From: Deltaproteobacteria bacterium
Lineage (GTDB): Bacteria; Desulfobacterota; BSN033; UBA1163
NCBI GenBank assembly: GCA_020059605.1
Contig: JAGVBT010000120.1
Coordinates: 1,582-65,581, forward strand
Direction of reading: 5' to 3'
DNA length: 64,000 nt
Part shown: positions 3,291 through 61,086 of the stretch, in pieces
Layout of the letters: each line of letters begins with the position of its first letter
Numbering within the stretch: position 1 is the stretch's first letter
Translations under genes and position numbers: made by a program
The notes under the pieces: model-generated
What the model was told of the DNA's origin: nothing
Seen by the model: the letters and a program-made list of their open reading frames with translations, nothing else
The model's database searches: none

Positions 3291-4469
3291 CTATTTGGGG
3301 AGTTTACGGCTCCCCTTGATGTATTCCGATTCCTCCCAGGTAACCCACTTTCCACCCTGTCCTACGAATCGGCTGACCATGACATTGGTGGTCTGACCGG
3401 TGGCATCGAAACTGGTTTCACCCATCAGGCCTTTATACTTGACTCCCCGAATATATTTCGTAATGGCGGCTTTGTCCTCCGGCCCGGTTTTCGAAATGGC
3501 TTCGAGGATAATTCCTGCGGAGTCGTAAGCGTTGGGGCCATAGGCGCCGAAGGGCTCCCGGTACCCGGCCCCTTCATATGCCTTGACAAACCTTGTTCCT
3601 CCTTCAAGCTTATCGATCGGTCTTCCAGGCTTGATGGTCAATACCCCTTCTCCAGAAGGACCGGCTACCTCTAAAAATTTATCGTCTTTGATCCCGGAAA
3701 TTGCAAAGAACAGCTTCTTGAGGCCTACCTTTTCCATCTGGTCCCGTACGAGAGCTCCCTCCATCACTACGCCCCCGAAATAGACGGCGTCCGGGTTCAA
3801 GCCTTTCACCTTGGTCAGAATGGGTCGGAAGTCCGTTGTCCCTACGGTAACGCTATCCACGGAAAGGATCTTCGCCCCTTTGGCCTCGGCCATGGGCCGG
3901 AAGGCTTTGAGATTCATCTCCCCGTAACTGCTTGTATCCGAAATGATCGAAATATTTTTATATCCCAGTTCCCCGATCACCCAGTCACAGAGAGGACCAT
4001 TCTCCTGGACCAAAGTCGGCGCCACTCTATTGACTCCAGGATATTTATAGAAACCGGTGATGTCAGGGTGGATGGCTCCCCAGACGATGAAGGGAATCCT
4101 ATAGGTGTGAAAGATATGGATCGTAGCCAGAGCCACCGGACTGTTCCAGTGGCCGCTTGCCGCTGCAACGGCCGGATCGGAAACGAGTTTGAGCGCAGCT
4201 GCCACACCGGTGGCCGGATCGGAGGCATCGTCCAGAGCCACCATCTCAAATTTGAAAGGATATTTGCCGGAGGCGTTCGCCTCGCGAATGGCCAGGTCAA
4301 AGGCATTCCGCGCCCCCACGCCCTGCGCCGCGTTGGGTCCGGTGAGCGGACCGATAAAGCCGACCTTCACCACCTTGGATTGGGCCCATCCGTCCGATGA
4401 AATTAAAAAGATCGGAATGGCTAAAAGAAGAAAAAGAACCGCCTTATGTCTAAAAACCTTCATCTTCAT
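3291..4469 (-). CDS. Periplasmic substrate-binding protein of Liv-type ABC transporter (LivJ/LivK family)
   Basis: 392 aa with N-terminal signal peptide (LLLAIPIFLISSDGWAQ); periplasmic-binding-protein type I fold motifs; first gene of the liv operon. Confidence 0.85.
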   Translation of the reverse strand: MKMKVFRHKAVLFLLLAIPIFLISSDGWAQSKVVKVGFIGPLTGPNAAQGVGARNAFDLAIREANASGKYPFKFEMVALDDASDPATGVAAALKLVSDPAVAAASGHWNSPVALATIHIFHTYRIPFIVWGAIHPDITGFYKYPGVNRVAPTLVQENGPLCDWVIGELGYKNISIISDTSSYGEMNLKAFRPMAEAKGAKILSVDSVTVGTTDFRPILTKVKGLNPDAVYFGGVVMEGALVRDQMEKVGLKKLFFAISGIKDDKFLEVAGPSGEGVLTIKPGRPIDKLEGGTRFVKAYEGAGYREPFGAYGPNAYDSAGIILEAISKTGPEDKAAITKYIRGVKYKGLMGETSFDATGQTTNVMVSRFVGQGGKWVTWEESEYIKGSRKLPK

Positions 4470-5877: not shown

Positions 5878-6546
5878 TCAATGCCTTACCCTTTGTTCCC
5901 TCTTCTTCTCCTGTATCGTGCGATCCAGTATCCCCCGATGGATGACCCGTCCATCGGGGTCCGCACTGATTGCCTTCAGGTAGTAATGCTCCGCTTTCGC
6001 CCCTTCCCCGATCTTCTCATAGCAGTCGCCCATCAGATTCAGGGCATCTTTGAAAGTGGGAAGATATTCAATGATTTCCTCCAGCGTGTTGATGGCGGCA
6101 TAATATCGCCTTAATTTCCAGTAGCAGACCGCCAGCCAGTAGTGCCCCTGGTAGTGCTTGGGGTTGATGTGAACGACCGTCTCATAATGAGGAACGGCCT
6201 TTTCAAACATCCTTCTTCGAAAGTAGAGCCCTCCGAGGTTCATGAAAACGGGAATGGAATGCGGGTCTTTTCCTAATATCTCCTCGTAGGTCCGGGTCGA
6301 TTGATCCGTCAGGCCGGCCTGGTCATACGCATTGGCCTTTCCAAAAAGGTAATTGAAGCGATGCTCCTCTCTTGAATGTTCCCTGAATATCACATCCCTG
6401 ATGAGGAACCAGAGGACAGGAATCATATGGAAGAGGTAGCGAAACAGTTTTAAGCTCATCCGTTTCTCCTCAAAACGTGCTGCTTTGGAATATTCATAAA
6501 TTCCAATCACCAAATTCCAAGCTCCAAATAAATTCCAATGACCCAA
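5878..6546 (-). CDS. TPR-repeat protein with N-terminal membrane anchor
   Basis: 222 aa; TPR-like repeats (AVCYWKLRRYYAAINTLEE, NLMGDCYEKIGEGAKAEHYYLKAI); hydrophobic N-terminal segment. Confidence 0.6.
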   Translation of the reverse strand: MGHWNLFGAWNLVIGIYEYSKAARFEEKRMSLKLFRYLFHMIPVLWFLIRDVIFREHSREEHRFNYLFGKANAYDQAGLTDQSTRTYEEILGKDPHSIPVFMNLGGLYFRRRMFEKAVPHYETVVHINPKHYQGHYWLAVCYWKLRRYYAAINTLEEIIEYLPTFKDALNLMGDCYEKIGEGAKAEHYYLKAISADPDGRVIHRGILDRTIQEKKREQRVRH

Positions 6547-6612
6547 TAACCAAACGTTGATTGTCGTTTGGAATTTGGATATTGGATATTATTTGGTTAT
6601 TGGTGCTTGGTA
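6487..6612. repeat. TTCCAA/TTGGAA-family (B) palindromic repeat, copy 1
   Basis: ccaaattccaagctccaaataaattccaatgacccaataaccaaa ... tttggaatttggatattggatattatttggttattgg (inverted arms). Confidence 0.7.
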
Positions 6613-6630
6613 ATTGGTTATTCTTCTTCC

Positions 6631-7741: not shown

Positions 7742-7925
7742 AAATCCGAATATCGAATATCGAAATTCGAAACAATGACCAAAATTCGAATCTCAAATGA
7801 CCCAAACTCATTTTTTAAGATGTGACATTTTGAATTTTGAACATTTGAAATTCGGATTTGTTTCGAATTTCGCTTGCCTTCGCCGAAGCGGCTTCGCGCA
7901 GGCAGGTGCTTCGAGTTTCGAATTT
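7742..7925. repeat. TTCGAA-rich palindromic repeat element, family A (gene-less MITE-like copy)
   Basis: Left arm aaatccgaatatcgaatatcgaaattcgaaacaATGACCAAAATTCGAATCTCAAATGACCC; right arm gaaattcggatttgtttcgaatttcg plus a GC hairpin gccttcgccgaagcggcttcgcgcaggcagg; arms are inverted repeats; related copies at 13636, 22840, 27846, 41925, 56199 and 56622. Confidence 0.7.
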
Positions 7926-8895: not shown

Positions 8896-9024
8896 AGGAC
8901 ATTGGAATAATGGAAGGGTGGAAGAATGGAATAATGGGTTTATTCCACTATTCCATCCTTCCAATATCAAAGCGAATTTTGGTTTTCATCAATCCGCATT
9001 CCGCAATCCGAAATCCGAAATCAG
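8896..9024. repeat. Palindromic repeat, TTCCAAT/ATTGGAA family (C) fused to a short family-A fragment (gcaatccgaaatccgaaatcag)
   Basis: ggaataatggaagggtggaagaatggaataatggg ... ttccactattccatccttccaat inverted arms, read directly. Confidence 0.55.
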
Positions 9025-11090
9025 AAGAGTGAGACGAGCCACTGGTGGATGACAAGGATCATCGGACCGAAGACCAACGAGACAACGGTCATCAATTTCA
9101 AGAGGATGTTCATTGACGGACCGGAGGTGTCCTTGAAAGGATCGCCCACCGTATCGCCCACGACAGCGGCCTTGTGAGTATCCGACCCCTTCCCTCCCAG
9201 GTTTCCTTCCTCAATCCATTTCTTTGCATTGTCCCAGGCTCCTCCGGCATTGGCCATCTGTAGCGCAAGGGGAACGCCTGTTGCAAGAGAACCCAACAGC
9301 ATTCCCGCCAGCGCCTCCGGACCGAGGATACTTCCCAGAACAACGGGAATGGCTACGGCCGTTACTCCGGGGGCAACCATCTCCTTTAGCGCGCCAGCTG
9401 TCGTGATGTCAACGCACCGGGCATATTCGGCCCGCGCTGTGCCTTCCATCAATCCTTTGATCTCCCTAAACTGCCTCCGCACCTCTTCCACCACGCTGAA
9501 GGCGGCCCTTCCCACGGCCATCATCGTTGCCCCGGCAAAGTAGTAGGGAATGACGGCGCCGATAAAGACGCCTGCCACAATCTTATAACCTCCTGCCGCA
9601 CTCATGATGTCAATCGAAGTCAGTCCCATCACCTGAGTATAAGAGAGAAAAAGGGCCAGGGCGGTCAATGCGGCAGATCCAATGGCAAAACCCTTTCCGA
9701 CAGCAGCCGTCGTATTCCCGGCGGCATCCAGAGAATCGGTGATCTTCCGGATCTCCTTGCCCATATGCGCCATCTCTGCAATACCCCCGGAATTATCCGC
9801 AATGGGTCCATAGGCGTCCACGGAGACAACCATGCCGGTGATAGCCAGCATCCCGATGGCTGCCAGGGCGATGCCGAAGAAACCGGCCAGATTAAAGGAG
9901 ATAAGGATGGCTATTCCGATGACCATCAGAGGGATAATGGTGCTCCGGCAGCTCAGTGCAAATCCGTGGATGATCGTTGTAGCTGCCCCTGTGATGCTTG
10001 CCTTGGCCAGGGCCTCGACCGACTTTCCCGAGGTATAGTAAAACGCTGTCCACCCGATCACCATCCCTGACACAATGCCTGAAAATGTGGCCAGGAAATA
10101 GGAGAGGTCTTTTCCGAACATTCCCAAGACCAGGATGAGCGCGCCGATGGAATAGAAGATCGCGCTCGAGAGCGTTCCATTATTGAGCGCTTTCCTGGGA
10201 TCGGATTTCTCGTCCGTCCGGACAAAGAAAACTCCAATGATGGAGGCAATAATCCCAATGGCATAGAGGATGAAACAAAGAATGACTCCCTTGATTTTAA
10301 GTTCAGGTGTCGGGAGCGTGGTCACGGCAATGATCACTCCGGAGAGAAGCGAACCGATATAAGATTCATAAAGGTCCGCACCCATGCCGGCCACATCGCC
10401 GACATTGTCTCCCACGTTGTCGGCAATCGTTGCCGGATTTCTCGGGTCGTCCTCCGGAATTCCCGCTTCGACCTTTCCCACCAGGTCTGCGCCTACATCG
10501 GCCGCCTTTGTATAAATCCCTCCTCCTACTCTGGCAAAGAGGGCGACGGAACTTGCGCCCATGCTGAAACCGGCAATGATTCCCGCTGCCTCGGTCATCT
10601 TCTCCACCAATCCGCCCGGTGCAAGCTGTCCTAAAATCAAAAATACAACGGAGAAAACTAAAAGTCCCAATCCAACAACAGTGAGCCCCATCACCGCGCC
10701 GCCCGGAAAGGCGACGGACAAGGCCTGATTAAACCCCCGGGTGGCCGCCTGGGCAGTTCGAGTGTTGGCCCTCGTGGCTATGCTCAATCCTACATATCCG
10801 GCCACCAGGGAGCAGGCCGCTCCTACCAGGTAGGAAAGAGCGGTCAATAGGGAGAAATGCCATCCCTGACCTTTGAGCCCGACGGCCAACAGGATCGCCA
10901 CAATAATCGCAAAGATGGAGATGGCCCTATATTCCCTTTTTAAGAAAGCCATCGCCCCTTCATGGACCGCATCGGAAATGGCAACCATCTGAGGTGTTCC
11001 GGGGTCCTGCCTCATCACCTTTCTGGCCGTGAAGACGACAAAAACCAAAGCAAAAATTCCTGTCAGCGCTGCAACTCCAATCCAGACCAT
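9021..11090 (-). CDS. hppA: K+-stimulated membrane pyrophosphatase (H+/Na+-translocating PPase)
   Basis: 689-aa polytopic ORF with hallmark V-PPase motifs ([36 protein letters not shown]). Confidence 0.95.
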
Positions 11091-13550: not shown

Positions 13551-13625
13551 TGGCTGGGGTGGGAGGATTCGAACCTCCGAGTCCAGGTTCCAAAGACCTG
13601 TGTCTTACCGCTTGACGACACCCCA
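13551..13625 (-). tRNA. tRNA-Gln (anticodon UUG), CCA encoded
   Basis: Folded by hand: acceptor TGGGGTG/CACCCCA, anticodon stem CAGGT/ACCTG, loop CTTTGGA, T-arm GGAGG-TTCGAAT-CCTCC, discriminator G plus CCA. Confidence 0.85.
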
Positions 13626-13635
13626 ATCTTAAACC

Positions 13636-13692
13636 ATAAATCCGAAATTCGAATATCGAATCTCGAAACAAATCCGAATGTTCAAATGACAA
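13636..13692. repeat. Family A repeat, half-length copy
   Basis: ataaatccgaaattcgaatatcgaatctcgaaacaaatccgaatgttcaaatgac. Confidence 0.6.
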
Positions 13693-13733
13693 AGGAGTAG
13701 AGGCTTTCATGTTCGGATACCGATAATATCTCT

Positions 13734-16279: not shown

Positions 16280-16725
16280 TTGACGGTCCAATCTCCACTT
16301 CGGCAACCCGGCTATCCAAGGGATTTGCTATTGCAAATCCACCAAAGACCACCTTTAGTTTTTAGCCAAAGGTAAGAAACCAATTTTGGCTTCTTCTTGG
16401 ACCCGTGCCTGCACGCCTTAGTGCCAGCCAATATTAGGCAGGTATTTCGGCTTGCAAGCACTCCTGCATCCTGTTTTGCCTGACTGCTGTAGTCAGGCGT
16501 TTCGGCACGCAGGCGTGGCTTTCCGTCCCACGATTACTCGTGGTTTGGCTTTATCGAAAATTTTAAGATATTTCTTTTGGTGAGATAATCAGCAATTATA
16601 ATGCCAATCCGGCATTCAGGATGAAACCTTTTGAATTCAATAGAGTATGTTGAAGAGTGGAATTTCAGGAAGAATGAATACTGCCTTTTTTTGTTTCCCT
16701 AAGAAAAATTTTTACTGAGGAAGGA
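16280..16725 (-). ncRNA. ORF-free structured leader or sRNA candidate; possible riboswitch or attenuator for the Cys-rich gene pair
   Basis: About 450 nt with no ORF of 60 aa or more in any frame in a genome that is otherwise densely coding; several stable hairpins (AGCCAAA...TTTGGCT, CCTGACT-n5-AGTCAGG, GGATTTGC-n4-GCAAATCC); ends in the terminator hairpin directly upstream of an RBS. Confidence 0.35.
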
Positions 16726-22354: not shown

Positions 22355-22909
22355 ATGGAGCAAGGCGATTTTTTTAAAGAAACAATGAAGTTCATCGCTG
22401 ATCGCACGCTCGGGAAGCTGGCAAAAGGGTTGAGGATGCTCGGTTATGATACCGTTTATTACCGGGGCGATGATTTTCATCAACTCATCCATATCGCCCG
22501 CCAGGAGGGACGAATCCTCGTGACCCGGAATACGAAACTGGCCCTTAGACGACCGAAGGATCATATCATTACCCTCACAGAGAACCATCCTTCCCGGCAA
22601 CTCGAGGAGTTAATTCGAAAAGGGAAACTCTCTTTCAACGACGAGGTCCCTTTTACCCGATGCATCCCCTGTAATGGACCGCTCGAGGATATCCCCCGGG
22701 ATCAGGCAGAAGGCAAGGTCCCGGATTTTATCTTTCATCAGCAAAAAGATTTTTTCCACTGCCGCCGGTGCGATAAGATCTACTGGCAGGGATCACACCT
22801 GGGCAACATGCAGAAACGCGTCAAAGAACTATTACATATTAAATCCGAAAATCGAAATTCGGGCGAAGCTTCCCGAAGGGATCAATTCGAAACAATCTCT
22901 AATGATTAA
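22355..22909 (+). CDS. Mut7-C RNase domain protein (PF01927-like) with a C-terminal zinc ribbon
   Basis: FIADRTLGKLAKGLRMLGYDT...; CPCNGPL...CRRCDKIYWQGSH zinc ribbon; the C-terminal 20 aa are encoded by repeat-element sequence. Confidence 0.7.
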   Translation: MEQGDFFKETMKFIADRTLGKLAKGLRMLGYDTVYYRGDDFHQLIHIARQEGRILVTRNTKLALRRPKDHIITLTENHPSRQLEELIRKGKLSFNDEVPFTRCIPCNGPLEDIPRDQAEGKVPDFIFHQQKDFFHCRRCDKIYWQGSHLGNMQKRVKELLHIKSENRNSGEASRRDQFETISND

Positions 22910-23026
22910 ATCTCAAATGTTCGAAACAAATCAGTTTGAGACATTTGGATTTCGGAAATTCGAATTTGTTTCGCCTGCCTGCCGGTAGGCAGGGATTTCG
23001 ACATTCGGATTTCGAATTTTTAAAAG
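22840..23026. repeat. Family A repeat element, gene-less copy
   Basis: aaatccgaaaatcgaaattcggg...caattcgaaacaatctc...ggatttcggaaattcgaatttgtttcg plus a GC hairpin gcctgcctgccggtaggcaggg and ttcgacattcggatttcgaattt. Confidence 0.7.
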
Positions 23027-24163: not shown

Positions 24164-24218
24164 TATGAATAACCAAATTCCAAGCTCCAAATAAATTCCA
24201 ATAACCAAAATTTCAAAT
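24164..24218. repeat. TTCCAA-family (B) repeat, copy 2
   Basis: aaccaaattccaagctccaaataaattccaataaccaaaa, nearly identical to 6506-6556. Confidence 0.7.
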
Positions 24219-27280: not shown

Positions 27281-27886
27281 ATGCTTGGCGACAGACTCGG
27301 ACACCGGCTCGACCCCTTTCTTTACAATGCCTATAAAAAACTCTTCGGGGAAAATGGGAATCCCAATCTCTTCACCCTGCTCGGATTCTTCTCCACCCTT
27401 GGCGCTTCCCTTCTCGTCCTGGAAGGGTTCTGGTTGTTCGCAGGCTTGTTCCTAATCGTCTCAGGGCTTTTTGATCTTCTCGATGGAGTGATCGCCAGAA
27501 ATTTAGGGAAAGCGACGGTTTTCGGAAGCTTTTTCGATTCGGTGATGGACCGGTATTCGGACCTTCTCTTCCTTCTGGCTCTCATTATCCATGGCCTGGG
27601 AGAGGAAAACGCTGCCCTGGTTGTTCTCGCTTCCGTGGTCGCCATCGGAACCGCCCTCATCCCCTATGTCCGGGCAAAAGCGGAATCCCTCCAAATCCCC
27701 TGCCACACAGGCCTGATGGAAAGAGCGGAGAGGATCATTCTTCTCTCCCTTGGAACTCTGTTGAACCGGATAGAACCGGTCCTCTGGATCCTCGCCGTCC
27801 TCACCCACGTCACGGTCCTCCAGAGAATCTATCATGTCTGGAAGAAAATCCGAAATTCGAATATCGAAATTCGAAACAAATTCTAA
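27281..27886 (+). CDS. CDP-alcohol phosphatidyltransferase family protein
   Basis: Exact D-G-x2-A-R-x8-G-x3-D-x3-D motif (DLLDGVIARNLGKATVFGSFFDSVMD); the C-terminal tail is encoded by the repeat element. Confidence 0.8.
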   Translation: MLGDRLGHRLDPFLYNAYKKLFGENGNPNLFTLLGFFSTLGASLLVLEGFWLFAGLFLIVSGLFDLLDGVIARNLGKATVFGSFFDSVMDRYSDLLFLLALIIHGLGEENAALVVLASVVAIGTALIPYVRAKAESLQIPCHTGLMERAERIILLSLGTLLNRIEPVLWILAVLTHVTVLQRIYHVWKKIRNSNIEIRNKF

Positions 27887-27988
27887 ATTCAAATTTTTCA
27901 AATTCAAAACCATCTCTATCTGTTTGGGTCATTTTGATTTTGAACATTTGTGCTTGTTTCGAAATTCGCATTTCGAGCTTCGAATTTA
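27846..27988. repeat. Family A repeat element, gene-less copy
   Basis: gaaaatccgaaattcgaatatcgaaattcgaaacaaattc ... gggtcattttgattttgaacatttg ... gtttcgaaattcgcatttcgagcttcgaattt. Confidence 0.7.
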
Positions 27989-41756: not shown

Positions 41757-41924
41757 CAGCAATCTCCTTCAATTATCCTGAAATTTGACGTGCCAAATTC
41801 TTGCCAATCATCTTTAAGGCTTCGGATCTAACAAATCCGAAACCCGCATACCGACATCTTTATCCTGTTCAATCATGGTTGAAACCGAGCAAATCAAAAA
41901 CCACTTCCACACAAATTTAACAGG

Positions 41925-42035
41925 GCAGGCAAATTCGAATTTTCAACATTTCAATATCTTAAACTGTTATTGGTCTCGAACATTTGAAATTTGGTCATTT
42001 GGGATTGTTTCGTGTTTCGAATTTCGAATTTTGCT
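41925..42035. repeat. Family A repeat element, gene-less copy
   Basis: ggcaggcaaattcgaattttcaacatttcaat...gaacatttgaaatttggtcatttgggattgtttcgtgtttcgaatttcgaattttgcttgcc. Confidence 0.6.
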
Positions 42036-42040
42036 TGCCT

Positions 42041-43495
42041 TTAAACCACTTTCCTTCTCTCGCTCGAGGAAAGAATCTTCATCATCTCCCGGTATTTTGA
42101 AATCGTCCTTCGGGCAATATGGATATTTTTCTCCTTCAGGATCTGAACCAGCTTCTCATCGCTATGGGGCTTTCTCGGATCCTCCCGGACAATGATCTCC
42201 CGGAGCAAGCTCTTGACGCTTTCGGAAGCCATGGCGTCTCCTTGAATGGAGGGGATGCCGGCATTGAAGAAAAACTTCAGTTCATAGATCCCTTGGGGGG
42301 TATGCATATATTTATTGTTGGTCACCCGGCTCACGGTGGATTCGTGCATCTCGATATCCTCCGCCACATCCCGCAGGACAAGGGGCTTCAGATACTGGAT
42401 CCCCTGATCCAGAAAGTCCTTCTGAAATTTGACGATGCTTTGGGCCACCTTGTAAATGGTCCTCTGCCGTTGATCGATGCTCCGGATCAGCCAGAGGGCG
42501 GAACGCAGTTTCTCCTGGATATATTTTCGGTCATCCTGGTGAGATTGACGGCCCTCGGCGAGAATACGGCGGTAGTAGGAATTGACAACCAACCTGGGAA
42601 TTCCTTCGTCGTTCAGGGAGATCACGTATTCCCCCTCCATTTTGTAAACATACACATCGGGAGTGATGTCCTGGGCAACCTCGCCTCCATAAGCTCTTCC
42701 CGGTTTGGGCTCCAGCTTCGAGATCAGGGCGGCCGCTCGATTCACCCTTTCGAGGGAAACGCCTACCCGTTTCGCAATCGCCGGGAAGTTCCGGTTCTTC
42801 AACAGGGAAAGATGCTCTATCACGATCTTTTCCGCAATGGGGTCACGGATGGACAACTGATGCAACTGGATGAGAAGGCATTCCTTCAAATCCCTGGCCG
42901 CCACTCCGACGGGATCGAACTGTTGAATCTTTGGAAGGACCTTTTCCGCCATCTCAAGGGGAAAACCGGTCTCGGCGCTGATCTCCTCCAGGGACATCTT
43001 CAAATACCCGTCCTCATCCAGGTTTCCGATGATCCATATCCCGGTCTGTTTTTCTTCTTCGCTTAAGTAGGAAAGCTGGAGTTGCCAGCGGAGATGGTCG
43101 GAAAGGGTGGTGCTCTTGGTCAGGAAATTTTCAAAAGAAGGCCTCTCTTCGCCGTCCGCCTCCCTCGGTCCGGAAAGGGGGGCATGATTATAATTCTCAA
43201 GATAATTTTCCCAGTCGAACTCGTCGGACCCCTCTCCCTCTCCTTTCACTTCAATAGTATGCTCCGGACTCAATACCGGCTGCTCCGCCGCTGTTTCGTT
43301 TGTCCGTTCTTCTTCATCGGATGATTCCTTTCCTTCCTCGATCTCTTCGAGGAGCGGATTTTCGTTCATCTCCTGGCCGATCATGTCCACCAGTTCGAGC
43401 CGCGTCAACTGAAGAAGCCGGATCGCCTGCTGGAGCTGGGGAGTGATCACAAGTTGCTGAACAAGTTTGGGCGACTGTTTAAGCTCTAAAACCAT
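42041..43495 (-). CDS. rpoN: RNA polymerase sigma-54 factor
   Basis: N-terminal Gln/Leu-rich region, RpoN box ARRTISKYRE, HTH. Confidence 0.95.
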   Translation of the reverse strand: MVLELKQSPKLVQQLVITPQLQQAIRLLQLTRLELVDMIGQEMNENPLLEEIEEGKESSDEEERTNETAAEQPVLSPEHTIEVKGEGEGSDEFDWENYLENYNHAPLSGPREADGEERPSFENFLTKSTTLSDHLRWQLQLSYLSEEEKQTGIWIIGNLDEDGYLKMSLEEISAETGFPLEMAEKVLPKIQQFDPVGVAARDLKECLLIQLHQLSIRDPIAEKIVIEHLSLLKNRNFPAIAKRVGVSLERVNRAAALISKLEPKPGRAYGGEVAQDITPDVYVYKMEGEYVISLNDEGIPRLVVNSYYRRILAEGRQSHQDDRKYIQEKLRSALWLIRSIDQRQRTIYKVAQSIVKFQKDFLDQGIQYLKPLVLRDVAEDIEMHESTVSRVTNNKYMHTPQGIYELKFFFNAGIPSIQGDAMASESVKSLLREIIVREDPRKPHSDEKLVQILKEKNIHIARRTISKYREMMKILSSSERRKVV

Positions 43496-53409: not shown

Positions 53410-55314
53410 ATGGCTGAAAACACGCTGCCGAAGCTGCTGAAAAAGAACGCTGAAAAATATGGCGATCGAAGAATTGCCATGAGGGTGAAAGATCGCGGCA
53501 TCTGGCAGCGGTTTACCTGGAAGGATTATTATGACCGGGTCAAATATTTTTCGCTTGGCCTCCTCTCTCTCGGAATGAAAAGGGGAGATAAAATTTCGAT
53601 CCTCGGGGAAAATAAACCGGAAATCTTCTGGGCCGAATTGGGGGTTCAAGCGGTCGGGGGAACGATGGTGGGAATTTTTACGGATTGCACACCCCCCGAG
53701 GTCAAATTCTACGTGACGGATTCGGATTCCACTTTTGTCGTCGCCCATGACCAGGAGCAGGTGGATAAGCTCCTTCAGATCAAAGAGGAACTGCCCCTGG
53801 TAAAAAAAGTGATCTATTGGGATCCCAAAGGGTTGTGGAATTATGAAGACCCGATTTTAATCAGTTTTTCTGATATGATTCAATTGGGCAAGGAATATGA
53901 GAAGAGTCATACAGGCCTTTTTGAAGAAAATATCGAAAACGGAAAAGGTGAAGAAATCGCCCTGATCTGCTATACCTCCGGGACAACAGGTTTGCCCAAG
54001 GGAGCCATGATCAGCCACAGGGGGTTGGTTGCCATTGCTCAAGCCTGGCGCGACATCGACCATTGGTCCGATAGCGACCTGTATGTCTCATTTATTCCTC
54101 CGGGGTGGATTGCCGAGCAGGCCGTCGGGGTGGCCGGGCAACTGGTGTCGGGCATGGAGGTAAATTTTCCCGAAGAACCGGAGACCGTCCATGAGAACAT
54201 TCGCGAGATCGGACCAAGCATTCTCTTCTTCGCTCCCCGCCTATGGGAGAACATCAACCGGATGATCCAGGCAAAGATCACGGATACCTCGGCTTTAAGA
54301 AGATGGATATACCGTCTCCTCTTGCCCATCGGGTATAAAACAGCGGAGTACCGTTTGTCTAAAAATAATCGGGGAGTATTTTATAAAAGCCTCTACCCAT
54401 TCGCTCATTGGGTCCTTTTCCGTCCCCTCAGGGACCGGATGGGACTTTCCCGGATTCGATGCGCCTATACCGCAGGAAGTGCGGTCAGCCCCGAGATCCT
54501 CAACTATTTTCAGGCAATCGGGGTAAACATCAAGCAGCTCTACGGGGGATCGGAACAGGGATTGGTCACGATTCATCTCGACGGCGAGATTAAGTATGAA
54601 ACATGCGGCCCCCCCATGCCGGGCGTTGAGGTCCGCCTCTCCCCTGAGGGAGAAATATTGGTGAAAGGCGATAACATCTTTTCAGGATATTACAAAAATC
54701 TGGAAGCCACCCAGGAGAAAATTCGCGATGCCTGGTATTATACGGGGGATTTTGGTTACATTGATGACGACCGCCATCTCGTCGTTATCGATCGTATGGA
54801 GGACCTCAAAGAATTGAAGGGCGGCCGTAAATTCTCCCCTCAATTCGCCGAAATCCGTTTGAGGTTCTGTCCGTATATCAAGGATGCCCTGGTCATTGGG
54901 GGGGAGGACAAAGATTACGTCACGGCCATCATCAACATTGATTTGGAAAACGTGGGAAGGTGGGCCGAGGCCAGACGGATCCCCTATACCACCTTTACCG
55001 ACTTGTCCCAAAAATCAGAAGTGATTGAATTGATCAAGAAAGATATCCAGCGGATCAACAAGTTCCTGCCGGAGTGGTCCAGGATCAGGCGTTTCGTCAA
55101 CCTGCATAAGGAATTCGATGCGGACGAGGCAGAATTGACACGAACCAGGAAATTGAGAAGGACATTTGTGGAAAACCGCTATAGCGATTTGATCGCCGCA
55201 CTCTATGGAAAAGAGAGAGCGTATAATGTGGAAGCCTCCGTCACCTATCGGGATGGTAGAAAAGGAATGATTAAAACAGCGATCCAGGTCAATCCGGTGG
55301 AGGAAGTCCAGTGA
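53410..55314 (+). CDS. Long-chain acyl-CoA synthetase (AMP-forming), embedded in the Liv-type ABC operon
   Basis: 634 aa; AMP-binding motif YTSGTTGLPKGAMISHRG; GDFGYIDDD... Confidence 0.85.
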   Translation: MAENTLPKLLKKNAEKYGDRRIAMRVKDRGIWQRFTWKDYYDRVKYFSLGLLSLGMKRGDKISILGENKPEIFWAELGVQAVGGTMVGIFTDCTPPEVKFYVTDSDSTFVVAHDQEQVDKLLQIKEELPLVKKVIYWDPKGLWNYEDPILISFSDMIQLGKEYEKSHTGLFEENIENGKGEEIALICYTSGTTGLPKGAMISHRGLVAIAQAWRDIDHWSDSDLYVSFIPPGWIAEQAVGVAGQLVSGMEVNFPEEPETVHENIREIGPSILFFAPRLWENINRMIQAKITDTSALRRWIYRLLLPIGYKTAEYRLSKNNRGVFYKSLYPFAHWVLFRPLRDRMGLSRIRCAYTAGSAVSPEILNYFQAIGVNIKQLYGGSEQGLVTIHLDGEIKYETCGPPMPGVEVRLSPEGEILVKGDNIFSGYYKNLEATQEKIRDAWYYTGDFGYIDDDRHLVVIDRMEDLKELKGGRKFSPQFAEIRLRFCPYIKDALVIGGEDKDYVTAIINIDLENVGRWAEARRIPYTTFTDLSQKSEVIELIKKDIQRINKFLPEWSRIRRFVNLHKEFDADEAELTRTRKLRRTFVENRYSDLIAALYGKERAYNVEASVTYRDGRKGMIKTAIQVNPVEEVQ

Positions 55315-56195
55315 AAGAATTTCTCCAGCTCGCCATTCCTGGACTGATGATCGGGGGGCTCTATTCCCTCGTTGCAGCGGGGATCGTGCTGGTTTATAAA
55401 TCGACCCGTGTCGTGAGCCTGGCCCATGGTCAACTCCTGGCTTTCGGGGGCCTCTTCTTCTGGGTCGGTCTTGTGGTTCTTCATCTCCCCCTTCCGGTCA
55501 GCATCCTGTTGGCGCTGATCTGTTCCACCCTCATGGGTTGGCTTGTCGAGCGCCTCACCCTGCGCCCTTTGATCGGTCAGCCGTTGATTTCAGCTTTCCT
55601 GATGACCTTCGCCATTTTCATGGCCCTGGACGGAGTGTTCCAACTGATTCTCAAAGGCGAATCAAAAACATATGCGACGCTTTTATCCCTCGGAGAATTC
55701 GAAATGATGAGCGTGCCGATCCGGGTCGTACAGTTGATCAGTTTTGGCGTGGTTCTGTTCGTTTTTCTTTTTTTAGCTCTCTTTTTTCGATTCACCAAGA
55801 CGGGATTGGGGATGCGCGCAACGGCAGAGGACCATCAGCTCTCCCAGAGTACAGGAATCAATGTGAGGACGATCTTCTCCCTGATCTGGATCATTTCTGC
55901 GGCCGTCGCCTCGGTCGCCGGTATGGGGACGGCTTACGTGATGGATATCCATTTCCCCCTTCCCTACATCGGCATCAAAGGATTAATCGTCGCCCTCTTC
56001 GGGGGACTGGACTCTTTACCGGGCGCTCTCCTGGCCGGACTGATCTTGGGTGTTCTTGAAAATGTTTTTGCAGGTTATCTCGATCCTCTGGTGGGAGGGG
56101 GCCTGAAAGATGTGGCAGCCTATGTGCTGCTCCTGATTATTTTACTGATCAAACCTTATGGTCTCTTCGGGTTGAAGAGAATCGAAAGAGTGTAG
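55311..56195 (+). CDS. Liv-type ABC transporter permease (LivH-like)
   Basis: 294-aa polytopic LivH-family protein; 4-nt overlap with the ligase stop. Confidence 0.85.
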   Translation: MKEFLQLAIPGLMIGGLYSLVAAGIVLVYKSTRVVSLAHGQLLAFGGLFFWVGLVVLHLPLPVSILLALICSTLMGWLVERLTLRPLIGQPLISAFLMTFAIFMALDGVFQLILKGESKTYATLLSLGEFEMMSVPIRVVQLISFGVVLFVFLFLALFFRFTKTGLGMRATAEDHQLSQSTGINVRTIFSLIWIISAAVASVAGMGTAYVMDIHFPLPYIGIKGLIVALFGGLDSLPGALLAGLILGVLENVFAGYLDPLVGGGLKDVAAYVLLLIILLIKPYGLFGLKRIERV

Positions 56196-56685
56196 AAATA
56201 AAAATTCGAAATCCGAATTTCGAAATCCGAAACAATCTCGAATGACCAAAACACAAAATTCAAAACCGTATGATTTAGAAGAACGAACTCCTCAATTTGC
56301 TAAAAATGTTAGGGCCTTCGTTAAAAAATTACCTAAAACTATATCAAATATTGAAGATATAAAACAACTTGTTAGGGCATCTGGTTCTGTTGGTTCGAAT
56401 TACATTGAGGCAAACGAGGCTCTCGGTAAAAAAGACTTTCTTCTAAGAATTAAAATATGTCGAAAGGAGGCCAAGGAAAGTCGATATTGGTTGAGGTTAA
56501 TTGACACCGATGCCAAATCTGATCTGGAAAATGAAAGAAAAGACTTGGAAAATGAAGCTACGGAGCTGATGAATATTTTTGGTTCAATTTTAAGAAAAAC
56601 AGAATAATATTAAACCATTTGGTGATTCGGATTTAGAAATTGTTTCGAGTTTCGATATTCGAATTTCGGATTTCTGGGGTTTAAC
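56196..56685 (+). mobile_element. Candidate composite insertion: a four-helix-bundle gene bounded by about 45-bp family-A inverted repeats, inserted between livH-like and livM-like genes
   Basis: Left arm 56199-56245 (gaaatccgaatttcgaaatccgaaacaatctcgaATGACC) and right arm 56622-56678 (ggatttagaaattgtttcgagtttcgatattcgaatttcggatttc) are inverted; the interior is about 35% GC against about 55% in flanking genes; the gene's first codons are part of the repeat consensus. Confidence 0.55.
56242..56607 (+). CDS. Four-helix-bundle protein (TIGR02436 / 23S rRNA intervening-sequence protein family; same family as DGR Avd accessory proteins)
   Basis: LVRASGSVGSNYIEANEALGKKDF...KEAKESRYWLRLI motifs characteristic of the family; 121 aa; low GC. 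Confidence 0.75.
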   Translation: MTKTQNSKPYDLEERTPQFAKNVRAFVKKLPKTISNIEDIKQLVRASGSVGSNYIEANEALGKKDFLLRIKICRKEAKESRYWLRLIDTDAKSDLENERKDLENEATELMNIFGSILRKTE

Positions 56686-57732
56686 ATGAGGCCTTGCGGG
56701 ACGTTTGACGAGCGTTATGGCCAGGACATGGCGATTTTTCGAATCAAAAGGCATTGGGGACTTCTGATCGGAGCGCTCGTTCTTCTCTACATCTTCCCCC
56801 TCTTCGGTTCCTATTATTTCATCAGCCTGATCAATCATCTCAGCATCACCATTATCATCGTCCTGGGCCTTCAACTCGTCAGCGGTTACTGTGGCCAGAT
56901 CTCCTTTGGGCAGGCTGCTTTCATGGCCATCGGCGCTTACACCTCGGCCATCCTCACCGGAAAGGCCGGCCTCTCCTTCTTTATTGCGCTTCCCATTTCA
57001 GGGATCGTTGCAGGGTTAATCGGATTGGGCGGGGGCGCTCCTTCCCTCCGCATCAAGGGCTTTTATCTCGCCATGGCGACCATCGCTATCCATTTTGTTG
57101 TGATGTGGTTGATCCCTCACCTTGAGATCACAGGAAAGACGCAGGGGTTGCATCCACCCGCACCACAGATCGGAAGCTTTGTCTTCGACAGTGATGAAAG
57201 AATTTACTACATCATCATTACCGTGATGCTCCTGATGGCCTATGGCGCCCGAAACATGGTCCGGACCCGCATCGGCAGGGCTTTTGTGGCTATCCGCGAC
57301 AACGACCTGGCCGCCGAGGTAATGGGGATCGAGCTCTACCGTTATAAACTTCTTGCTTTCTTCATCTCCTGTTTTTATGCGGGGATCGCTGGTTCGTTAT
57401 GGGCTCACTGGATTCAAGTGGTTCACCCTGAACAATTCACGCTGCTCCATGCCCTGAATTACATTGGGATGCTCATCATTGGTGGCGGGGGGAGCATTCC
57501 GGGAGTCTTTTTCGGTGTCATTTTCCTCCGCCTTCTTGAGGAGGGAGTCATGTTTGCGGCTCCATTGTTGGCAGCCGTTTTCCCCTGGATCGGGATCCAT
57601 CCGGCAGCATCCATGAGCGTTTCAGTATTCGGCATCGTCCTTATTATCTTCTTAATCTTTGAACCAAGAGGGCTCGCCCATCGCTGGGAAATCTTTAAGT
57701 CCTCTTATCGGCTCTATCCATTTTCACACTAA
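56686..57732 (+). CDS. Liv-type ABC transporter permease (LivM-like)
   Basis: 348-aa polytopic LivM-family protein; start may be the internal ATG at 56728. Confidence 0.85.
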   Translation: MRPCGTFDERYGQDMAIFRIKRHWGLLIGALVLLYIFPLFGSYYFISLINHLSITIIIVLGLQLVSGYCGQISFGQAAFMAIGAYTSAILTGKAGLSFFIALPISGIVAGLIGLGGGAPSLRIKGFYLAMATIAIHFVVMWLIPHLEITGKTQGLHPPAPQIGSFVFDSDERIYYIIITVMLLMAYGARNMVRTRIGRAFVAIRDNDLAAEVMGIELYRYKLLAFFISCFYAGIAGSLWAHWIQVVHPEQFTLLHALNYIGMLIIGGGGSIPGVFFGVIFLRLLEEGVMFAAPLLAAVFPWIGIHPAASMSVSVFGIVLIIFLIFEPRGLAHRWEIFKSSYRLYPFSH

Positions 57733-57789
57733 CTCCCTCTATTAAAAGAGGGGCAAGCAATGAAAGGAGGTGATTTGAAAATTAATAGA

Positions 57790-57890
57790 TAGATTGGAAG
57801 GGTTCCAGGGGTCAAGGATTCAAGGCTTCCAGTCATCCGAACATAAAATTTAAAACTCGAACCCCAGAATCCTCGAATCCTTGAACCCTT
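57790..57890. repeat. TTCAAGG/CCTTGAA-family (E) palindromic repeat
   Basis: gggttccaggggtcaaggattcaaggc ... gaatcctcgaatccttgaaccc. Confidence 0.6.
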
Positions 57891-57911
57891 TTAAAACGAA
57901 AGGAGGTTACG

Positions 57912-59117
57912 ATGAGAAAGATATTATGTGGAATAATCATGCTTATTTTTCTTTTTATTGCCGGAGTAATTCCGGGTCATGCCCAGAGGGAAGTCACTTA
58001 TTTGAGCCTCGCGGATTATACAGCGGCCATTGCGGGGCTCAATGTGCCTGCGGATATGGGCTGCGAGGACTACATTAAAGATTTAAATTCAAGGGGCGGT
58101 GTGGATGGCGTGAAGATAAAGTTCATCGGAGTGGACACACGATATGATGTGGCAAGAGGAGTCTCCGCCTACAAACGGTACCGCAATGAGCCCAAACTTT
58201 TGGTGGTCAACGCCATCGGGACCCCTATTGGCAAAGCCGTTGCTCCATTGGCGACAAAAGATAAGTTAGTTCAACTCGTTCCAGGAGACGGTGAATTTCA
58301 GGCTAATCTTGGTAGGATATTTGCCTGGGGTCCGACCTATCAGGACGCCTTTGCTGCCACCGTTGACTGGCTCCTTGCGGACTGGAAGAAAAAGGGAAAA
58401 ACAGGAATGCCCAAGCTCGGTTTCATCTCCTGGGATAGCGCTTATGGAAAGGAACCTCTCCGGGGCGGAAAAGAGTACGCTGAGAAGATGGGAGTCACTC
58501 TCGCTCCACCGGAGTTTTTCCCCCCTGGCACCATGGATCATACCGTTTATCTCAACCGGCTGGCAAAAGCGGATGTCAATTATATCTTCGTAGGCGGGGT
58601 CGATCCCACACCGACCAATGTGATTCGAGATGCCCATAAATTGGGGCTAACCAAAACCATCCAATTCTTCTGTGACTATTGGGGTCCTACTTCCCTCGGC
58701 ACCCGGCTTCACCCCGAAGCCCTGGAAGGAACTGTGATCGTCTCTTACTATCTCCGTGGAGACGATGCCAGAAAACATCCACTGGCCAATCTTTGGACAA
58801 AGTATGGCCGCGGTAAATTGGAGGATATGAACGAAGTCTATACCATTGGAATGGCCTGGGCCATGACGCTTGAAGCAGCGTTAAAGGTCGCTCTGAAAGA
58901 AGTGGGTTATAAAAAATTGGATGGAGAGGTCATCTACCAAACCTACCAAAAACTGACAGGCGTGCAGAGGGCCGGACTTCAGGGTCCCTGTGCTTACAGC
59001 CCGACCTCGCGCCGGGGAAGTTGGGAGGTCAAATTTTATCAGGTCAAGGGAGGAAATGTGGTTCCCATATCGGATTGGATAAAGGCTCCTGATGCCGTAT
59101 CACTTCACAAATTTTAA
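57912..59117 (+). CDS. Liv-type ABC transporter periplasmic substrate-binding protein
   Basis: Signal peptide MRKILCGIIMLIFLFIAGVIPGHAQ; type I PBP fold; 401 aa. Confidence 0.85.
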   Translation: MRKILCGIIMLIFLFIAGVIPGHAQREVTYLSLADYTAAIAGLNVPADMGCEDYIKDLNSRGGVDGVKIKFIGVDTRYDVARGVSAYKRYRNEPKLLVVNAIGTPIGKAVAPLATKDKLVQLVPGDGEFQANLGRIFAWGPTYQDAFAATVDWLLADWKKKGKTGMPKLGFISWDSAYGKEPLRGGKEYAEKMGVTLAPPEFFPPGTMDHTVYLNRLAKADVNYIFVGGVDPTPTNVIRDAHKLGLTKTIQFFCDYWGPTSLGTRLHPEALEGTVIVSYYLRGDDARKHPLANLWTKYGRGKLEDMNEVYTIGMAWAMTLEAALKVALKEVGYKKLDGEVIYQTYQKLTGVQRAGLQGPCAYSPTSRRGSWEVKFYQVKGGNVVPISDWIKAPDAVSLHKF

Positions 59118-59755: not shown

Positions 59756-60550
59756 ATGCTTCGCCTCAATAACATAGAAGTGATTTACAGTGATGTGATC
59801 CTGGTTCTGAAAGGGGTCTCCCTTGAGGTGCCCGATGGAAAGATCATCTCTCTCCTGGGCGCTAATGGCGCAGGGAAAACGACAACGCTCAAGGCTATTT
59901 CAGGGGTCCTCTATACGGAATTGGGCGATGTTACGGATGGAAGCATCGAGTTTGAAGGAGAGAGAATTGATGGTATGGCCCCCGAAGAGATTGTCCAGAT
60001 GGGGATTGTCCAGGTGATGGAAGGCCGCCGCATGTTCGAGCATCTCACGGTTGAGGAAAATCTTCGGGTGGGAGCCTATGCGCGAAAAGACAGGGAGGCC
60101 GTTTCAAAAGATCTCGGATCGGTTTATCGATATTTCCCAAGACTGAAAGATCTCAGGGGACATGTGAGCGGCTACCTTTCCGGCGGAGAAAGACAGATGC
60201 TGGTCATGGGGCGAGCCTTGATGTCGGATCCGAAGGTGATGCTTCTCGATGAACCCTCTCTGGGGCTCAGTCCCCTCCTCGTCAAAGAAATTTTTGAAAT
60301 GATCAAAAAGATCAACCATGAGGAGGGAACCTCCATCCTATTGGTGGAACAGAATGCGAAGATCGCTCTTTCCACATCGGATTATGGTTATATCATGGAA
60401 AATGGGCGGGTCGTTTTGGACGGCCCCTCTTCCAAATTAAGGGAAAACGAGGATATCAAGGAGTTTTACCTCGGGCTGAGCCAGGTCGGGAAAAGGAAAA
60501 GTTTCCGGGAGGTGAAACACTACCGAAGAAGAAAAAGGTGGCTATCTTAA
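59756..60550 (+). CDS. Liv-type ABC transporter ATP-binding protein (LivF-like)
   Basis: GANGAGKTTT Walker A, LSGGERQML signature. Confidence 0.9.
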   Translation: MLRLNNIEVIYSDVILVLKGVSLEVPDGKIISLLGANGAGKTTTLKAISGVLYTELGDVTDGSIEFEGERIDGMAPEEIVQMGIVQVMEGRRMFEHLTVEENLRVGAYARKDREAVSKDLGSVYRYFPRLKDLRGHVSGYLSGGERQMLVMGRALMSDPKVMLLDEPSLGLSPLLVKEIFEMIKKINHEEGTSILLVEQNAKIALSTSDYGYIMENGRVVLDGPSSKLRENEDIKEFYLGLSQVGKRKSFREVKHYRRRKRWLS

Positions 60551-60552
60551 TG

Positions 60553-60650
60553 ATAGGGTTCAAGGGGTCAAGGGGTCCAGGGTTCAAGTGTCCGTTAATC
60601 AATACAGTTTTTTGAATCCTTGAACCCTTGGCTCCTTGAACCCTTTGTTT
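60553..60650. repeat. TTCAAGG/CCTTGAA-family (E) palindromic repeat
   Basis: gggttcaaggggtcaaggggtccagggttcaag ... gaatccttgaacccttggctccttgaaccc. Confidence 0.65.
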
Positions 60651-61086
60651 AAATTGCTTCCAGCACAATCGTGATCTTGCCGTCGGGGAGGGTGAGAGGC
60701 GAGGCCTTCATCCTCATTCCCACTTTGATCTTCTTGACATCCATTTTGGGAATCCAGCCCATGACGGGCAACCCTTTCTCCACTTCAATGATTCCGACCG
60801 GGCAGGGCTCGAATTGAACGCTCGAGAAGGGCATCAGGGGTTGCCGTACGGCAAAATGTTCCGGAGGGACGTGAATTTTTGTAAAGGTGAGAAGTTTGCC
60901 CTCGGCTTTGATCTCTTTCCACTCCATATCACTTCCCATACAGGACGGGCAATCAGCCTGCGGAGGGTAGTATTGCTTTCCGCACTTCTTGCAGAGTGTG
61001 GACATAATCTTACCCCCTGCCAGCTCATCCGCAAAACGGCCCACTTTCGTCTGGTTGATGAAAAGTGAAAAATTCTTGAACTCCAT
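60649..61086 (-). CDS. Zn-ribbon/OB-fold protein (DUF35 family), partner of SCP-x-type thiolase
   Basis: CKKCGKQYYPPQADCPSC zinc ribbon followed by an OB-fold; located immediately downstream of the thiolase-like gene. Confidence 0.75.
   Translation of the reverse strand: MEFKNFSLFINQTKVGRFADELAGGKIMSTLCKKCGKQYYPPQADCPSCMGSDMEWKEIKAEGKLLTFTKIHVPPEHFAVRQPLMPFSSVQFEPCPVGIIEVEKGLPVMGWIPKMDVKKIKVGMRMKASPLTLPDGKITIVLEAI

Follow-up and report, generated by a model that had tools for sequence, protein, structure and literature searches.

The intervening sequences (IVSs) in helix 9, 25 or 45 of 23S rRNA, known from Coxiella burnetii, Leptospira, Brucella and Xanthomonas and present also in rRNA genes of the candidate phyla radiation (CPR), are the closest described relatives of the element reported here. 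The Coxiella IVS is 428-444 nt long, with a 28-bp terminal inverted-repeat stem that is cut by RNase III, an S23p open reading frame (ORF) and tandem GACAGAT heptamers that run up to an ATG whose Shine-Dalgarno (SD) sequence is poor (PMC4990558); insertions in CPR rRNA also carry an S23p-family ORF (PMC11270868). The origin proposals of 1990-93, as recounted in PMC4990558, were that IVSs are remnants of transposition or a mobile element whose ORF aids mobility, the mobile-element proposal dating from 1993. Here we analyse a 64,000-nt stretch of DNA from Deltaproteobacteria bacterium (contig JAGVBT010000120.1, positions 1,582-65,581 of the forward strand; hereafter the window), in which a gene of the same protein family, framed by inverted arrays of 7-nt repeats, separates the livH-like and livM-like genes of a liv operon. 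We read it, with a probability of about 0.55, as an IVS-type cassette: a heptamer-framed S23p/TIGR02436 gene inserted in a protein-coding operon.

Operon-cotranscribed MITEs (miniature inverted-repeat transposable elements), such as Correia/NEMIS of Neisseria and Nezha of Nostoc and Anabaena, are likewise short inverted-repeat units with many intergenic copies, empty and filled sites and stable predicted hairpins (PMC3184786). They are, however, non-coding and have a unique terminal repeat in common with a known insertion sequence (IS) transposase, whereas the cassette encodes a non-transposase protein, has heptamer arrays for arms and has no known partner IS. A third point of comparison is offered by heptanucleotide arrays. 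The short tandemly repeated repetitive (STRR) sequences of cyanobacteria consist of 7-bp units, fold into hairpins between the genes of an operon and have no assigned function (PMC2670836); Nostoc 7120 has (TTCAAAA)n and GAC(C/T)AAT arrays at start codons, for which a preprint calls for finding the binding partner (10.1101/2022.06.06.494920); and heptamer repeats with a patchy cross-phylum distribution also occur in Beggiatoaceae and Geobacter. Like the arms of the cassette, such arrays (TTCAAAA, GAC(C/T)AAT, TAACTGA) are intergenic 7-nt units that often abut start codons, form hairpins between operon genes and appear in patchy phyla, but they have been described as free-standing direct arrays, and in the open-access literature and preprints they are linked with neither a four-helix-bundle gene nor an inverted-repeat cassette.

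A framed S23p-family gene between livH and livM

Two genes flank the ORF (56242-56607, + strand; ATG start, 121 aa), one of 294 aa on its left (55311-56195) and one of 348 aa on its right (56686-57732); a hidden Markov model (HMM) search assigns both to PF02653, as permeases of the branched-chain-amino-acid type of ATP-binding cassette (ABC) transporter. A first-pass annotation of the window had proposed at this place a four-helix-bundle gene of low GC bounded by inverted repeats, and both parts hold: the ORF list, PF02653 and PF05635/TIGR02436 confirm the gene and its neighbours, the GC of the element is 0.32-0.355 against about 0.50-0.57 in the flanks, and two arms of 41 nt each (56202-56242 and 56633-56673) form an imperfect inverted repeat with 83% complementarity. 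The locus comprises:

55311..56195 (+): livH-like ABC permease gene, upstream host (PF02653, E 4.4e-29; ORF list; orthologues P0121-P0240)
56202..56242 (+): left arm, an inverted repeat with a heptamer array at 56207-56234; the same arm stands at -40..0 in most of 78 loci
56242..56607 (+): four-helix-bundle protein gene, S23p / 23S_rRNA_IVP / TIGR02436 (HMMs, predicted structure, dN/dS, covariation)
56618..56629 (+): inner right arm TTTGGTGATTCG, the inverted-repeat complement of CGAATGACCAAA over the start codon, paired in both the minimum-free-energy (MFE) and the centroid RNA fold
56633..56673 (+): right arm, a mirror-image heptamer array with TTCG core (56641-56668) after the TTGTTTCG junction
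56674..56685 (+): host sequence CTGGGGTTTAAC with the GGGG ribosome-binding site of livM, delimited by comparing the junctions of the window and of loci L003, L083 and L084 with the empty junction of L085
56686..57732 (+): livM-like ABC permease gene, downstream host (PF02653, E 5.9e-40)

The livH-like gene ends in a TAG stop 6 nt 5' of the left arm, which is built of ~7-nt CGAA-core units and, past the CGAAACAA junction, reaches the ATG without a Shine-Dalgarno sequence; pairing of the arms continues over the start codon, CGAATGACCAAA with TTTGGTGATTCG. In an equivalent copy, L001, the inverted repeat reaches z = 12.7 against shuffled flanks. The whole cassette spans ~475 bp, the gene plus two arrays that mirror each other and have some five 7-nt repeats apiece; neither the cassette nor its surroundings yielded a sigma-70-like promoter consensus.

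The likeness to 23S rRNA IVSs extends from the protein family and the size (~475 against 428-444 nt in Coxiella) to the architecture: an inverted-repeat stem around a sense-oriented ORF (here 41-nt arms, paired in the predicted folds), tandem heptamers directly 5' of the ORF start (here a CGAA core every 7 nt, 56207-56234, in place of GACAGAT), a poor or absent SD sequence and the existence of gene-less versions. The setting differs: the element does not lie inside a 23S or 16S rRNA gene but between two PF02653 permease genes, and an Rfam scan of the window detected no rRNA and matched the hairpins to no known RNA family. The first-pass annotation had presented the association of this protein family with an inverted-repeat-flanked unit as new. 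The observation holds, and more widely than first thought, but this headline claim is wrong as stated, since the family was discovered in such units (Coxiella 23S IVS; PMC4990558); what the window shows is the founding context, here outside rRNA.

The protein passes the curated cutoffs of PF05635 (23S_rRNA_IVP; E 3.7e-13, 50.1 bits against 33.8) and TIGR02436 (four helix bundle protein; E 3.3e-19, 69.1 bits against 24), and its AlphaFold2 model (pLDDT 89.5) consists of four helices, at residues 12-29, 34-58, 63-86 and 93-120, so that profiles and fold agree in placing it in the S23p / 23S_rRNA_IVP / TIGR02436 family. Its best Foldseek matches are S23p-family structures, 2RLD (TM 0.72-0.80; phmmer E 1.6e-10) and 2GSC (TM about 0.6); the 2RLD entry holds five chains, and a Xanthomonas S23p-family protein is reported as a pentamer in work cited by PMC4990558. 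A defence function was considered for the protein and rejected, the PADLOC defence models giving 0 families at E <= 0.01.

Avd, which belongs to diversity-generating retroelements (DGRs), is a pentamer that binds nucleic acid. It has the same four-helix-bundle superfamily fold, and PF05635 is the Pfam family that matches it best (PMC10053308), so the gene could be an Avd-type accessory gene of a DGR that has its reverse transcriptase and template at another place in the genome. We consider this a very remote prospect: Avd (4DWL) is a more distant fold match (TM 0.65-0.73) with a sequence identity of 12-13%, and the S23p-family structures match far better; the genomic setting is another one, the immediate neighbours in 68 loci being metabolic or transport genes; and the locus holds heptamer arms only, with no template/variable repeat pairs. 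That no reverse transcriptase accompanies the gene had been noted for the window; this extends to the called genes of L001 and L083-L090, which contain no reverse transcriptase domain, and for the window itself it applies to the best 25 of 105 Pfam families.

The orthologous genes that share the liv site give a dN/dS of 0.07-0.14, which indicates a functional gene under strong purifying selection, in contrast to the decaying and probably untranslated ORF of the Coxiella IVS. The gene had been described as the cargo of the unit. Given the low dN/dS and the covariation with the arms described below, it is, on the evidence of sequence comparison, the conserved core of the unit and not an incidental passenger. 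A separate observation concerns synonymous sites: the nucleotide identity of the ORF is 0.91-0.92 against ~0.80 in the host genes on both sides (window 53410-59117 compared with L083 and L084), and its dS is ~0.4 against 1.2-1.5 in the flanking host genes at similar protein identity, with the step exactly at the ORF borders. This excess of synonymous conservation is strong at the liv locus, present in ~5/12 other same-site pairs and absent in the rest, and is thus not general.

The frame accompanies the gene across phyla

Close relatives of the protein (75-93% identity) number at least 8000, in metagenome-assembled genomes (MAGs) labelled as many phyla. When each species was represented by one genome, a scan gave at least 540 loci, of which 80 were kept for analysis; these represent more than 15 phyla in all, from Desulfobacterota/Deltaproteobacteria, Planctomycetota, Verrucomicrobiota, several CPR lineages, Aminicenantia and Zixibacteria to Bacteroidota, Chloroflexota, Chlorobiaceae, Terriglobia and Gammaproteobacteria. 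When 130 nt on each side of the gene were compared with shuffled controls, a flanking inverted repeat with z > 4 was found in 64 of 78 testable loci (~82%; median z 9.6), so the arms, which the earlier reading had required to align beyond chance, do so and travel with the gene across phyla. The left-arm consensus is AAATCCGAAATTCGAATATCGAAATCCGAAACAAATTCAAATG, usually at -40..0 relative to the ATG; the right arm is its mirror image and ends ~60-70 nt 3' of the stop. Both are built of ~7-nt units in which the CGAA core is conserved and the remaining positions vary, and the ends of the element are sharp, with unrelated host DNA beyond the arms.

The frame is not confined to CGAA-type units. A second subfamily, formed by relatives of a different four-helix-bundle gene that occupies livH|livM in L055, was sampled in 80 metagenome loci: heptamer inverted repeats were present in 61/72 (median z 10.8), with units as diverse as AATTAGC, TGCAAAA, CAATGGT, AATGAGA, GAATACG and GACAGGC, and both neighbours were co-oriented with the gene in 36/40. 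Distant members (32-38% identity) on complete plasmids of cultured strains have the same heptamer frame, which therefore is not an artefact of MAG assembly. The Nostoc flagelliforme member has (AATTCAA)4 within a perfect 31-nt inverted repeat, the same unit as in the TTCAAAA arrays of Nostoc 7120; the Planktothrix agardhii member has AATCCCC and AATCGTA arrays and is flanked by the genes of a DISARM helicase and an MmeI-type enzyme; the Ca. Chlorohelix (Chloroflexota) member has GATGAAG units and is flanked by those of a helicase and an N6-methylase.

Three distant members (L171-L173, on plasmids of Anabaena cylindrica, Planktothrix agardhii and Ca. Chlorohelix) are situated within defence-type gene clusters, namely cas2/cas1 (on the opposite strand), DISARM drmD/MmeI-type enzyme and helicase/N6-methylase; these too sit between two genes of one system. 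Arms can also be amplified. In a Cyclobacteriaceae MAG (L067, 3564-4246) the right-arm unit TTTTTCGGATTTCGGAATTCGAGCTTCG forms, 3' of the four-helix-bundle gene, a minisatellite-like array of eight identical tandem copies with alternating 55- and 109-nt spacing, and in L055 (4365-4600) a ~120-nt tandem duplication takes in the left arm and the opening codons of the second four-helix-bundle gene (AAAAATGATATGGAGTTAGACGGAGGAGAGAAGAAGACCGGAGATGATATATAAAGAATGTAATCTAAC repeated).

The cassette occupies stop/start junctions within operons

Both neighbours are co-oriented with the gene in 64/68 loci (94%), against a baseline of 65% for the other genes of the same loci (p = 2.5e-8). The stop of the upstream gene usually lies 38-46 nt 5' of the ATG, so that the arm begins at or right after it, and the downstream gene starts 10-25 nt 3' of the right arm. 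Ahead of the ATG of the four-helix-bundle gene an SD-like tetramer stands in 2/65 loci, compared with 22/50 that have one just after the right arm. The two neighbours are typically subunits of one enzyme or transporter: livH/livM, V-ATPase B/D, 2Fe-2S/molybdopterin subunits (CoxS|CoxL-type) or, in 11 planctomycete loci, the large and small subunits of an aconitase-family enzyme (leuC|leuD-type); another pair consists of a B12-binding domain protein and a glyoxalase-family protein. Annotators and operon predictors treat such genes as ordinary operon members, yet they are insertions that break up operons between one subunit gene and the next.

This placement could also be read as that of a domesticated regulatory module, in which the host keeps the hairpin, with or without the protein, to uncouple or tune the expression of neighbouring subunit genes, by way of the stability or processing of the transcript or by translational coupling. 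The sites between subunit genes of hetero-oligomeric enzymes and transporters would suit such a role, as would the long vertical retention at one site (the 11 planctomycete leuC|leuD-type loci; four liv loci), the purifying selection on the ORF and the regenerated downstream ribosome-binding site, and a similar role has been suggested for the STRR hairpins between hupS and hupL of cyanobacteria (PMC2670836). We nevertheless judge it decidedly improbable, because the unit is found in many unrelated operons and phyla at protein identities of 64-93%, which speaks for spread and not for local adaptation, because sister lineages do well with a 1-nt spacer, and because ~10-15% of copies have lost the ATG or have internal stops.

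Insertion at the liv junction and its age

At the same livH|livM site the orthologous operons L083, L084 and L003 carry the genes most closely related to this one (93%, 89% and 87% identity), and LivH is similarly close there. The first-pass annotation had suggested looking for an empty site in relatives, and such sites exist: in the syntenic operons L085 (LivH 85% identical), L088, L089 and L090 (~70%) livH and livM are separated by a spacer of 1-2 nt. Empty junctions in relatives and filled ones in the window, L003, L083 and L084 mean that the unit was inserted; the aligned junctions show entry into the chromosome as DNA, at the livH/livM stop/start junction, in an ancestor of this deltaproteobacterial clade, followed by vertical inheritance. 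The junction has been colonised more than once, since L086 (LivH 84%) has there a gene-less heptamer hairpin of a different flavour and L055 has the different four-helix-bundle gene mentioned above (44% identical), with AATTAGC-type arms and a CTA-flavoured copy one junction upstream. Elsewhere, a perfect 10-bp direct repeat, CTATGATTGG, stands at both ends of the element in L076, where deleting the element together with one CTATGATTGG copy restores an ATGA stop/start overlap, and the elements of L026 and L048 are 86% identical in unrelated flanks.

The insertions are old. Three copies in one MAG are 68-71% identical and same-site copies across MAGs 77-83%; copies thus cluster by site and not by genome, as expected of vertical inheritance. 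Recent intragenomic transposition was rejected on the same figures, which give no sign of recent activity. Low GC had been taken as a sign of foreignness; the GC of the gene follows that of its host from 0.25 to 0.60, so low GC was rejected as a mark of recent foreign origin, and the dip in the window reflects composition and amelioration, not recent arrival. Phages were considered as vectors of spread and rejected: IMG/VR viral contigs contain no relative, and 50,697 phage records gave one weak match.

Gene-less derivatives

Defined as at least 3 heptamers with a CGAA core, arrays number 8 in the window against 0 expected, with 4 more of a CCAA flavour. The exact 29-nt arm is unique to the element in the window even when up to 3 mismatches are allowed, which means that the other copies have diverged (60-77% identity) and are seen only as degenerate heptamer arrays. 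They are:

7742..7925 (+): gene-less hairpin of CGAA flavour, its right arm split by a GC-rich mini-hairpin at ~7873-7907
13637..13696 (+): left-arm-only fragment abutting tRNA-Gln (13551-13625, - strand), no right arm detectable
22841..23019 (+): gene-less hairpin with GC-rich mini-hairpins inside both arms, at 22862-22883 and ~22974-22994
27846..27987 (+): gene-less hairpin with 34-nt arms, 79% complementary; its interior AAATTCAAAACC equals ORF nt 15-26
41917..42045 (+): gene-less copy with intact right and degenerate left arm, clamped by GGCAGGCAAA/TTTGCTTGCC
8991..9034: one-sided direct heptamer array, no hairpin

All six places had been listed in the first-pass annotation as gene-less copies sharing the arms. 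Three of them (7742, 22841, 27846) are full hairpins; the left arm is degenerate at 41917 and the only one at 13637, and 8991 is a direct array. The gene-less copies are, as had been proposed, colinear with both ends of the gene-bearing element: common to them are the outer arm, the CGAAACAA junction and the inner arm including the ATGACC... start region, then the inner right arm followed by the TTGTTTCG junction and outer arm. Alignment also bears out that the first codons of the ORF belong to arm and inner-arm sequence that recurs in gene-less copies. Whether these copies are deletion derivatives is answered in part. Another genome's gene-less copy, in L082, keeps nt 1-61 of the ORF of its own genome (z = 12.2; MTEI*NSKQHDIEDREHAFAQ against MTENENPKQYDLEDRTFAFAR), which demonstrates origin by internal deletion; in the window the remnant is short at 27846-27987, a 12-nt exact ORF match at the right position (p about 0.025), and none is significant in the other gene-less copies. 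Beyond the window, 41 arrays lie outside gene-bearing elements in 389 kb, beside gene-bearing copies in other phyla.

Repeats of related design surround these copies. Palindromes on a 7-nt plan with other cores (CCAA/TTGG, GGAAT/ATTCC) lie at 6503-6617, 24168-24209 and 8907-8967, the first of which had been set apart as a copy of a family B; it has the same design, with a core of CCAA instead of CGAA. Next in the same operon, the spacer from livM to the binding-protein gene has a heptamer hairpin that differs from one close relative to another: of TGAACCC/GGGTTCA flavour in the window (57798-57890; also at 60547-60652), of CGAA flavour in L003 (4517-4656), and with GC-rich GGGGTGA-type repeats in L083 (5527-5795). 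In that spacer the nucleotide identity between the window and L083 is 0.11-0.35, against ~0.80 in genes, which suggests that gene-less hairpins turn over faster than the gene-bearing unit.

Covariation between arms and protein

The conserved part of the arms is a core of 4 nt that recurs every 7 nt and has the look of a repeated binding site for a protein. In several clades the core of both arms has switched from CGA to CTA, with an accompanying change in the protein. Arg is present at alignment column 119 (R118 of the window protein) in 39/46 CGA-type elements and in 0/16 CTA-type elements, which have T or E instead; at column 112 (N111), too, Asn is missing from these 16. On helix 4 the two residues stand 7 positions apart and so, in the AlphaFold2 model, on the same face.

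Discussion

The comparisons establish for the cassette insertion as DNA at a stop/start junction, a family-wide frame, sense orientation, the lack of expression signals of its own, purifying selection and gene-less derivatives. By analogy with rRNA IVSs, we hypothesize that it would be co-transcribed as part of the liv operon, and that in the transcript the arms would pair into a long A/U-rich stem enclosing the ORF and covering the AUG, as in the MFE and centroid folds, where the arms form one long stem around the ORF with the AUG paired. RNase III, whose cleavage is shown for rRNA IVSs, could by the same analogy cut this stem and free an ORF-bearing RNA. RNase III also cuts Correia elements in mRNA. 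The encoded protein may recognise the heptamers of its own arms, as the CGA/CTA covariation with Arg118 and Asn111 on helix 4 leads us to infer, and gene-less hairpins would be internal-deletion or arm-only derivatives of the same family.

Several observations weigh against this reading. The arms are only ~80% Watson-Crick paired, and their mismatches show no sense-strand G·U excess (122 G·U-compatible against 103 A·C, p = 0.23), so that arm pairing could equally be explained at the level of DNA, for example by repeated protein-binding sites at both ends. The independent CGA/CTA switches are few, perhaps 2-4 as far as they can be counted on a poorly resolved tree, and in the second subfamily residue-level covariation is too heterogeneous to interpret and does not cleanly reproduce. 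Target-site duplications, which the first-pass annotation had suggested looking for, are perfect at L076 (10 bp) and give no signal over 60 loci (mean longest shared word 4.02 against 3.95 ± 0.12 for permuted pairs; not significant). At the liv site GGGTTTAG of the empty junction weakly resembles GGGGTTTAAC to the right of the element, and GGGGTTTAAC also provides the ribosome-binding site of livM; the host sequence CTGGGGTTTAAC (56674-56685) may be a decayed target duplication. No transposase was found beside 80 loci or among the best 25 of 105 Pfam families in the window, and there is no sign of current activity, copies grouping by site and not by genome.

Part of this evidence would suit a MITE-type DNA transposon, in which a transposase encoded at another place binds the heptamer arrays as subterminal sites, after the manner of elements that have several subterminal repeats, while the protein acts as an accessory factor that binds the ends or rides along as a passenger, and RNA folding is incidental. 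The element has terminal inverted repeats, dispersed copies and empty as well as filled orthologous sites; the L076 duplication, the like elements in unrelated flanks at L026 and L048, the many gene-less copies with one deletion derivative, the wobble-compatible mismatches without strand asymmetry and the conservation of a 4-nt core at fixed 7-nt spacing, instead of conserved pairing, all point the same way. We still hold it to be unlikely, though worth keeping in view, because the full-length unit encodes the four-helix-bundle protein only, no transposase with matching ends came to light in the searches just given, a general target-duplication signal is missing, a spread over >15 phyla would require an equally widespread partner enzyme, and 94% sense orientation with a fixed stop/start position is unexpected from DNA transposition alone. 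The term non-autonomous, used for the element in the first-pass annotation, is plausible, and a cassette of IVS type and a DNA transposon mobilised in trans are mutually compatible.

The IVS-cassette reading can be widened, tentatively and with the odds somewhat against it, into a general proposal: S23p/TIGR02436 proteins would be sequence-specific partners of bacterial heptanucleotide arrays, including cyanobacterial STRR-type ones, each lineage reading its own 7-nt unit through helix 4; gene and arms would form a self-contained cassette at operon stop/start junctions and in rRNA genes in most phyla, of which rRNA IVSs would be a special case and free hairpins the gene-less offspring. Three points appear to be new, namely (i) the residence of the cassette mainly in protein-coding operons of many phyla, (ii) lineage-specific heptamer arms that covary with the protein and (iii) gene-less derivatives; together they tie rRNA IVSs and unexplained heptanucleotide repeats to one protein family. 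Among open-access papers and preprints we found no link of the protein family to heptamer arrays outside rRNA IVSs and no description of operon-embedded copies of the cassette. If the proposal is true, rRNA IVSs, whose origin has been debated since 1990-93, are insertions of a far wider cassette that lives mostly in protein-coding operons, the heptanucleotide repeats (STRR, TTCAAAA, GACCAAT, TAACTGA) gain a concrete candidate binding protein, and a very abundant protein family of unknown function gains a testable ligand.

Other features of the window

Small GC-rich hairpins (e.g. CCTGCCTGCCGGTAGGCAGGG, GGCGAAGCTTCCCGAAGGGATC) are nested at roughly symmetric positions inside the A/T-rich arms of several copies, in the window at 22862-22883, ~22974-22994 and ~7873-7907, in L083 at ~3953-3973 and in L086 at 3345-3425; by their appearance they form a second, smaller family of repeats that has the arms as its target. 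On the - strand, positions 16462-16559 match the c-di-GMP-I riboswitch aptamer (Rfam RF01051) with 39.9 bits against a gathering score of 35.

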